Origin: Escherichia coli
Lineage (GTDB): Bacteria; Pseudomonadota; Gammaproteobacteria; Enterobacterales; Enterobacteriaceae
Assembly (NCBI RefSeq): GCF_045037415.1
Contig: NZ_CP173438.1
Direction: 5' to 3' (one strand)
Length of the DNA stretch: 64,000 nucleotides
The position numbers and the translations under genes were made by a program. The notes under the pieces are model-generated. The model worked only from the letters and a program-made list of their open reading frames with translations, was not told the origin of the DNA and searched no databases. This document shows, piece by piece, positions 57,271-57,769 of the stretch; within the stretch, counting starts at the first letter, position 1, and each line of letters opens with the position of its first letter.

Positions 57271-57769
57271 TTTTTTTGAACGACTTTTTACCCTTCCGGC
57301 CCGCATGGCGGCTGGATCCGTCAAGGATCCGTGCGTGCACAAAAAAACGCGCTTTTTCTGCGCGCAGGTGACGGGGGAACAGCCCGCGTTTCAGGGGGTA
57401 AATAGCATTCCCTGAACGATGTCGCAGAGACACAACAGAATGGCCATATTTCTCACGCTGAGCATGAAAAAGGCGTGAGGGCTTTTGATTTGATGGGGTG
57501 AAAGGTAAGGCCGTCAAAATCGCACTGAGGCAGCGAGAACATGCAGTCAACGCGGTGGAATTGCGTAAGAGTCTGACCGTCGATGGTGGCGATAAACTGG
57601 AAGGCGTCGTGAAATTATCTGATTGATACAGGAGCTGGAGAGCCGGGGCATAAATTTTTTATGCCCCGGCGAAGCAGCAGACAAGCGAAGCGCGTCAGCG
57701 ATACGGCACCTTGCCGACCATACTTCATAAGTGCAAAATACGAGCAAAGAAATCAATGGAGGCTGTCTT

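Follow-up and report, generated by a model that had tools for sequence, protein, structure and literature searches.

A conserved hairpin module at the end of the late packaging operon in P88-like prophages of Escherichia coli

What does a long and perfect palindrome do between the cohesive-end site and a cargo gene of a prophage? The question is raised by a stretch of 64,000 nucleotides of Escherichia coli DNA (assembly GCF_045037415.1, contig NZ_CP173438.1), here called the window. A sequence-only reading of the window had placed the palindrome about 100 bp upstream of a 174-aa gene and about 270 bp to the right of a putative cos core, had judged it too long and too perfect to be due to chance, and had proposed that it could be a bidirectional terminator, an operator, or a part of the packaging signal. 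We find that the palindrome is the core of a conserved, lineage-specific module of 66 bp that lies at the end of an operon, and that such an element is of an ordinary kind, though unusual in some details. The features discussed below are collected in Table 1.

Table 1. Features around the palindrome, in window coordinates
Feature	Position	Strand	Remarks
cos cohesive-end equivalent GGTGACGGGGGAACAGCCC	57368-57386	.	aligns to the 19-nt ends of P2 and 186
Variable spacer from cos to the module	57391-57632	.	contains a 42-codon ORF at 57498-57626 (+)
Conserved noncoding module, 66 bp	57633-57698	.	AGCTGGAGAG, hairpin, then GAAGCAGCAGACAAGCGAAGCGCGTCAG
Outer helix, left half GCTG, 4 bp	57634-57637	.	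from predicted folds; nearly invariant
Palindrome/stem-loop	57642-57670	.	13-bp stem, 3-nt loop
Outer helix, right half CAGC	57675-57678	.	from predicted folds
TCA, stop of portal gene Q in P88-type phages	57695-57697	-	noncoding here; from comparison with P88
Cargo unit (moron) insert	57699-58325	+	gap in the homology to P88
Promoter-like TTGCCG-17-CAAAAT, weak	57711-57739	+	read from sequence, below scan threshold
174-aa CDS	57770-58294	+	
Canonical bidirectional terminator, T-runs on both strands	58300-58320 (stem)		stem contains the final codons and the stop of Q
Portal gene Q	58309-59355	-	
Terminase large subunit gene P	59355-61106	-	first gene of the leftward late P-Q operon

The palindrome reads GCCGGGGCATAAA-TTT-TTTATGCCCCGGC, and its two 13-nt arms, 3 nt apart, are 100% complementary, as had been claimed. 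The distances were also borne out: the ATG of the 174-aa gene (57770) follows the end of the palindrome after 99 nt, and the palindrome starts 256 nt to the right of the cohesive-end equivalent. Its length and perfection are indeed beyond chance. None of 100 dinucleotide-preserving shuffles reproduced the full pattern, and 20 composition-preserving block shuffles yielded perfect hairpin arms of at most 7 to 11 nt, against 13 nt in the real sequence. Only three other perfect palindromes with arms of at least 12 nt occur within the window. As RNA, the hairpin has a folding energy of −24.2 kcal/mol (z = −5.4), with similar stability on both strands, and in the predicted fold a 4 × 4 internal loop (GAGA/GAAG) separates the main stem from the outer helix. 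A dispersed repeat of the REP, BIME, or MITE kind was rejected because the palindrome is present in a single copy in the window; elsewhere the module was found only in P88-like elements, once in each. Searches with the module alone, including distant blastn, matched only P88-like phages and elements. No family of Rfam 15 overlapped the module at permissive thresholds (E-values up to 5), and a literature search with the palindrome core sequence returned no match.

The DNA around the palindrome belongs to a P88-like prophage (genus Xuanwuvirus, Peduoviridae, P2 family). Positions 57200 to 58320 are 100% identical to many E. coli ST131 chromosomes, including those of EC958 and JJ1886, and to several induced phages. 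Homology to P88 is lost after 57698 (...GCGCGTCAG) and returns within Q. The insert in between fits the moron concept in having its own promoter-like site, Shine-Dalgarno sequence (GGAGG, preceding the 174-aa CDS), and terminator. The 174-aa gene is under purifying selection, with nucleotide diversities (pi) of 0.022, 0.008, and 0.076 at codon positions 1, 2, and 3 among 24 distinct window-type sequences. Its product matches PHROG 5091, of unknown function, and gave no match to Pfam, PADLOC, or NCBIfam.

In P88 itself (locus L001), the same palindrome, with one base different, sits in a 68-bp gap between the 42-codon ORF on the + strand and the Q stop. The P88 portal CDS ends at 2952, within ...gcgcgTCAggatg; the hairpin starts 25 nt past this stop, and the module abuts it. 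In most other relatives the module likewise lies between Q and cos and adjoins the Q stop, and the TCA is the Q stop codon in L006, L007, and L009 as well. In the window the hairpin follows no coding gene. Conservation in other P2-like prophages on the cos-proximal side of Q, the check suggested along with the earlier proposal, was thus found, with the palindrome as the core of the 66-bp unit.

The module also reaches well beyond close relatives. It is about 93% identical in a lineage whose portal and terminase proteins share only 28 to 33% and 37 to 39% identity with those of the window. The leftward operon of this divergent lineage is terminase-portal-ogr-like, and the module directly follows the last stop codon in L008, L144, L230, and L244/245, while in L234 a gap of about 210 nt intervenes. 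It thereby stands at the end of a transcription unit after Q in P88, after the ogr-like stop in the divergent lineage, and after a cargo stop in L007 and L009. In these last two loci a homologue of the 174-aa gene lies to the left of the module, ends 2 to 5 nt before it, and converges on Q, with the module filling the slot that the canonical bidirectional terminator fills in the window. A homologue on that opposite side is found in L234 as well, and cargo genes in general insert on both sides of the module. For this reason an integron attC-like cassette site was also considered; by reading only, no core-site motifs or integrase were seen nearby.

Both flanks change completely around the module in L006 to L009, L142, L144, L234, and L244, while its sequence is kept. 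At least seven different contexts were counted on the right and at least six on the left, with an abrupt loss of homology at both edges. L006 retains the cos block and the module but has an unrelated spacer of ~200 nt between them; L142 has a different insert of ~260 nt between the module and Q. Even where the left flank is unrelated (L006 to L008), the leftward operon keeps the module at its 3′ end. The distance from the module to Q is 0, ~260, or ~610 nt across loci, and the hairpin lies 244 to 257 nt from cos in most loci, 829 to 830 nt in five, and ~205 nt in L006. The right flank of the module, which bears two GCGAAGC direct repeats 16 nt apart, is 100% identical in every sampled context; this conservation is partly by construction, because the loci had been collected through portal similarity or through an 18-nt pattern in the flank, which fixes 18 of the 28 nt.

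The degree of constraint was assessed from pi across 84 loci, a number that is approximate since some contigs were taken twice, and with kinship ignored. The hairpin has a pi of 0.021, almost wholly from one polymorphic position, which is on par with the cos core (0.014), whereas its neutral neighbors range from 0.07 to 0.09: 0.066 to 0.082 at third codon positions of the adjacent portal gene, 0.079 in the spacer between cos and the module, and 0.090 in the 42-codon ORF. Conservation through linkage to the portal gene was rejected, since in the same loci the diversity at portal third positions exceeds that of the hairpin three- to fourfold, which indicates that the constraint on the hairpin is genuine. 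Within lineages, too, hairpin diversity is three to four times below that of neutral sites on both sides. Among window-type prophages (24 distinct sequences), 2 of the 29 hairpin columns are variable versus 65 of 243 in the spacer, which shows that constraint on the hairpin persists after its separation from Q.

The variants that do occur bear the mark of base pairing. The stem is maintained under a loop that can be TTT, TTC, TAC, TCC, or TT. At pair 10, a symmetric swap of T:A for A:T is seen in three contexts; pair 2 can be C:G, T:G, or T:A; and one lineage has U·G at pair 8. Variants that break pairing are confined to one or two loci each, the common ones being wobble or compensated, and all common variants fold to −27 kcal/mol or below on the + strand and to −20 kcal/mol or below on the - strand. 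In L217 and L244/245 the GAGA side of the internal loop is replaced by CTTC, complementary to GAAG, which results in a perfect 21-bp stem; this change looks like a hairpin-templated (quasi-palindrome) correction. The formal covariation test is weak from low diversity, with one double change and an observed value reached in 23 to 28 of 500 shuffles, and the 4-bp outer helix barely varies and is without covariation support. Nevertheless, a loop that drifts while compensatory changes preserve the pairing indicates selection on structure.

The same sites carry some information about the strand. Positions 3 to 13 of the half-sites are symmetric in nearly all loci, and position 2 is asymmetric (T:G) in the majority. 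This majority allele gives U·G in + strand RNA and C·A in Q-sense RNA. Wobble variants favor the + strand, antisense to Q. The position of the module points to the Q-sense strand and the wobble pattern to the + strand; a role in both directions would fit both.

The proposal of a bidirectional terminator was compared with what is known of intrinsic terminators. The stem itself is of the right kind (13 bp with eight G-C pairs, for an expected ~5 to 15 bp and GC-rich composition), although AT-rich at its center. For a canonical rho-independent terminator, at least about 5 U in the 8 nt directly 3′ of the stem were required. The + strand tail GAAGCAGCAG has no T, and the - strand tail TCTCCAGCTC has four in 10 nt, three of them within the first eight, so that neither strand has the U-run. 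The A-tract upstream and T-tract downstream of a bidirectional terminator are likewise missing: the hairpin is flanked by GGAGAG and GAAGCAG, and its A/T runs sit within the stem and loop, none outside. A terminator consensus scan of the window did not call the palindrome. Because no T-run lies 3′ of the stem on either strand, the hairpin is not a canonical intrinsic terminator, bidirectional or otherwise. A terminator-type element nonetheless fits best among the three natures first proposed, given its place after Q in P88 and in the slot of the terminators tQ and tW; what falls is the canonical bidirectional form.

tQ of P2 and tW of 186 are annotated as (putative) rho-independent terminators of the P-Q and W late operons. 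Like them, the module is a GC-rich stem-loop between cos and the portal stop, on the portal strand, at the end of the same operon in the same phage family, and this position holds in P88 and in most module-bearing loci. Unlike them, it has no T-run beside the hairpin, where tQ and tW have T5 to T6 directly after their stems, and it has no sequence similarity to either, by an alignment from cos to Q, in which homology to P2 and 186 was confined to the surroundings of the cos core, and by distant blastn. Its stem is longer (13 bp) and lies inside a 66-bp unit conserved in sequence; its hairpin is 256 nt from cos, compared with 141 to 145 nt in P2 and 186; and in the window it is displaced from Q by ~610 nt through the insert. 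A stem of 7 bp or more starts no further than 26 nt past the portal stop in about 20 of 27 portal relatives that come from other genera of Enterobacterales. About nine of these stems have a T-rich tail in the Q sense, and several long ones have none. Hairpins directly after the portal gene are therefore general in this group of phages, with the P88-type module as a T-poor form.

Two further kinds of element were compared with the module. With bidirectional intrinsic terminators it shares a location between convergent units in L007 and L009, symmetry and stability on both strands, and interchangeability in position with the canonical terminator at 58300-58320, but it lacks the flanking A-tract and T-tract. 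In E. coli, stem-loops without a U-tract also occur at 3′ ends, where they end or stabilize Rho-terminated transcripts. The module resembles these in being a strong hairpin followed, in the Q sense, by an untranslated stretch rich in C and poor in G. To our knowledge, such stem-loops are usually not conserved in sequence over 66 bp across phages with ~30% protein identity. The module differs in being conserved over this length between lineages of ~30% identity, and its link to Rho is putative.

The composition of the stretch beyond the hairpin deserves mention in this context. The Q-sense C/G ratio is 1.7 in the spacer (57391-57640), is held across 76 sequence variants, and compares with 0.83 to 0.86 in the coding regions of P and Q and 1.26 in the unrelated replacement spacer. 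Judged from sequence, the Q-sense RNA beyond the hairpin may be rut-like, and the strand asymmetry of the spacer could reflect either a Rho-loading region or a packaging-related feature. The same interval in P2 and 186 appeared G-rich by eye. The 42-codon ORF, to which the records of P88 and related phages assign a "hypothetical protein", also lies in the spacer. Its variable columns number 33, 37, and 32 by codon position, its pi is at the neutral level, and 8 of the 76 variants have stops or frameshifts. The absence of codon-position bias together with these disruptions indicates that the ORF is noncoding. A gene ended by the hairpin was rejected accordingly, all the more since L006 has unrelated sequence in its place. 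The annotation of a hypothetical protein beside the module can thus be corrected.

From these observations we infer that the module is an operon-end stem-loop that acts at the RNA level, as a barrier to transcription, as a protector of 3′ ends, or as both, a reading to which we give about an even chance. Its native place is between cos and the leftward late packaging operon, directly after the last stop of that operon, which consists of P-Q in most relatives and of P-Q-ogr in the divergent lineage. Transcribed from either direction, it would form a very stable 13-bp hairpin with a 4-bp outer helix that defines and protects transcript 3′ ends. The hairpin may stall the polymerase or terminate weakly, and it may also, or instead, act as a block to 3′ exonucleases once Rho has ended transcription in the C-rich untranslated spacer beyond. 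Late transcription arriving from the right and transcription arriving from the cos and cargo side on the left would be kept apart. In the window, the cargo unit has been inserted between the module and Q, with the hairpin left alone between cos and the insert. Since the insert is a promoter-gene-terminator unit, Q is now ended by the canonical bidirectional terminator of the insert. The module is a variant, without a U-tract, of the known tQ/tW type of element, displaced here by the insertion of cargo.

The transcript-end reading is favored by the position in relatives and the equivalence with tQ and tW, by the exchange with a canonical bidirectional terminator beside the same family of cargo genes, and by selection on the pairing and not the loop, with variable distances to cos and Q tolerated. 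Besides the wobble pattern, two observations sit less easily with it. The 28 nt from the hairpin to the Q stop are conserved in sequence, which counts against a pure terminator or stabilizer because neither requires it. Moreover, the hairpin is constrained where Q has a terminator of its own, and adjacency to Q is thus not the whole story.

The sequence-level conservation of the 28-nt flank, with its GCGAAGC repeats, keeps alive the option that a dimeric protein binds here to double-stranded DNA, with the module serving as an operator or helping, as an accessory site of the terminase or a host factor, in cos recognition or the termination of packaging. The near-perfect dyad symmetry, the constraint on the palindrome when detached from Q, and its constant occurrence in the interval between cos and the late operon are what such a site would show. 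It is nevertheless unlikely, given that position 2 is asymmetric in the majority allele and that the distances to cos (~205 to 830 nt) and to Q vary. As an operator the palindrome is disfavored. It is conserved in P88, where only the 3′ end of Q follows it and there is no downstream promoter or gene to regulate, and no candidate binding protein or cognate regulator was identified. In the window, a weak −35-like hexamer lies 40 nt beyond the end of the palindrome, and the promoter scan found no promoter there. An operator for the 174-aa gene was rejected as a general explanation, the module being conserved in phages that do not have that gene. A role in packaging fares no better. The P2-family cos core is given as 55 bp (Ziermann & Calendar 1990, as cited in PMC5694545), and the palindrome, 256 nt away, lies outside it. 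Its distance to the cleavage site is not fixed, it does not covary with the type of terminase or cos, and the same module accompanies a terminase of 37 to 39% identity with no P88-type cos nearby.

The mosaic structure of the locus points in another direction. Sharp edges, cargo on both sides, and presence across lineages of ~30% identity indicate that the module spread horizontally, and the 66 bp might have been kept simply as a recombination joint, traveling with swapped cargo and providing homology at a cos-proximal hotspot, with little function of its own. The gpA-gpQ interval beside cos, which runs from replication gene A to Q, is a published hotspot of defense and cargo genes in P2 (PMC9122126), and the mechanism by which its content is swapped has been described as unresolved (bioRxiv 10.64898/2026.02.27.708500). 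The cos-gpQ interval has likewise long been noted as an insertion hotspot, with retrons reported to replace the DNA between cos and a terminator of a 186-related prophage (PMC5694545). The ~93% identity of the module between lineages with ~30% portal identity, its many contexts on either side, and the homologous cargo genes that flank it on one side or the other would all follow from a joint. Linkers at mosaic joints share with the module the sharp homology breaks at its edges and the cargo inserted beside it, but the module is also structured and under purifying selection. A joint with little function of its own is doubtful for this reason, as the hairpin is three to four times less diverse within lineages than the neutral sites on both sides and compensatory changes preserve its pairing. 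A role in recombination is compatible with the transcript-end reading, and the module could serve as a recombination anchor of the hotspot as well.

A more specialized version of either idea would make the module a dedicated cis-element and not a weak terminator. It would then be a sequence-specific RNA element, of the RNase III/retroregulatory kind or bound by protein, that controls expression of the portal and terminase, or a conserved right-hand joint that works with the cos core in the homologous swapping of cos-proximal cassettes among divergent P2-family phages. We regard this as improbable. Processing by RNase III taken by itself, with cleavage of the long stem setting the stability of the upstream late mRNA, as at the comparable lambda sib and T7 R sites, is very unlikely. 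The 4 + 13 bp with a 4 × 4 internal loop amount to a stem of ~21 bp, the size of a substrate, which two lineages turn into a perfect 21-bp stem, and the absence of a U-tract and the conserved flanks are compatible with such a site; the near-invariant outer helix, with no covariation to back it, and the lack of an Rfam match argue against it. A strand-specific single-stranded DNA element, such as a priming or single-strand initiation hairpin in P2-type rolling-circle replication, is highly improbable: every variant folds at least as well on the + as on the - strand and all multilocus variants have their wobble on the + strand, but the informative sites number only ~4 versus 2, and plain terminators occupy this position in P2 and 186. 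Read-through of the Q stop into the module, which, judged from the sequence, would add RASLVCCFAGA, was rejected on two grounds: in the divergent lineage it is an ogr-like gene, with another spacing, that precedes the module, and conservation extends to cases in which the module has no adjoining gene.

On the side of Q, the module forms the border of the cos-proximal hotspot in which P2-like phages carry defense genes and other cargo. The block from cos to the palindrome is present in 1141 of 5426 complete E. coli genomes, about one fifth, including the pandemic ST131 lineage. If the module acts as a terminator or insulator, this would explain how cargo is expressed in lysogens without disturbing the late genes or cos. 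If it is also a recombination anchor common to divergent phages, it would offer a concrete handle on how the content of the hotspot is swapped. An operon-end hairpin without a U-tract is, moreover, of a kind that terminator predictors miss.

Several minor observations were made in the surroundings. The motif TGCACAAW occurs four times on the + strand within a span of 100 bp just to the left of cos (57244-57271 and 57336-57343), three of the copies at an exact 10-bp phasing in a well-conserved stretch. Its count over the whole window is not above chance, and the clustering alone is notable; the cluster could be a binding array for the terminase small subunit (cosB-like). A hairpin with a T7 run on the - strand (57347-57365) abuts the cohesive-end equivalent and looks like a leftward terminator just past cos. 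P2 and 186 have counterparts on the same strand (hairpin and TTTTAAT), and this hairpin may belong to the conserved cos core. Locus L176, an IMG/VR contig, opens (positions 1 to 54) with an Illumina adapter, ACACTCTTTCCCTACACGACGCTCTTCCGATCT, joined directly to the base after the hairpin; the break exactly at the palindrome is an assembly artifact.

Further to the left, the cos-proximal hotspot contains two leftward cargo genes (55667-57089, - strand), which encode a 165-aa DUF4760 protein and a 280-aa protein that is hydrophobic looking by sequence and has a weak PADLOC match to Csx27 (E = 1e-5). The two may form a defense system. About 20 nt upstream of the DUF4760 start codon lies a strong hairpin with a T6 run (57089-57065, - strand), an odd site for a terminator, which might be an attenuator. 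Downstream of a 940-aa replication gene, as in P88, the + strand carries genes for a plasmid-type ParM and a partition protein (54305-55583), which hints at a plasmid-like stage of maintenance. The longest perfect palindromes of the window, with arms of 12 nt and 14 nt, lie next to each other at 38875-38904 and 38918-38953, ~12 kb to the left of the replication gene.
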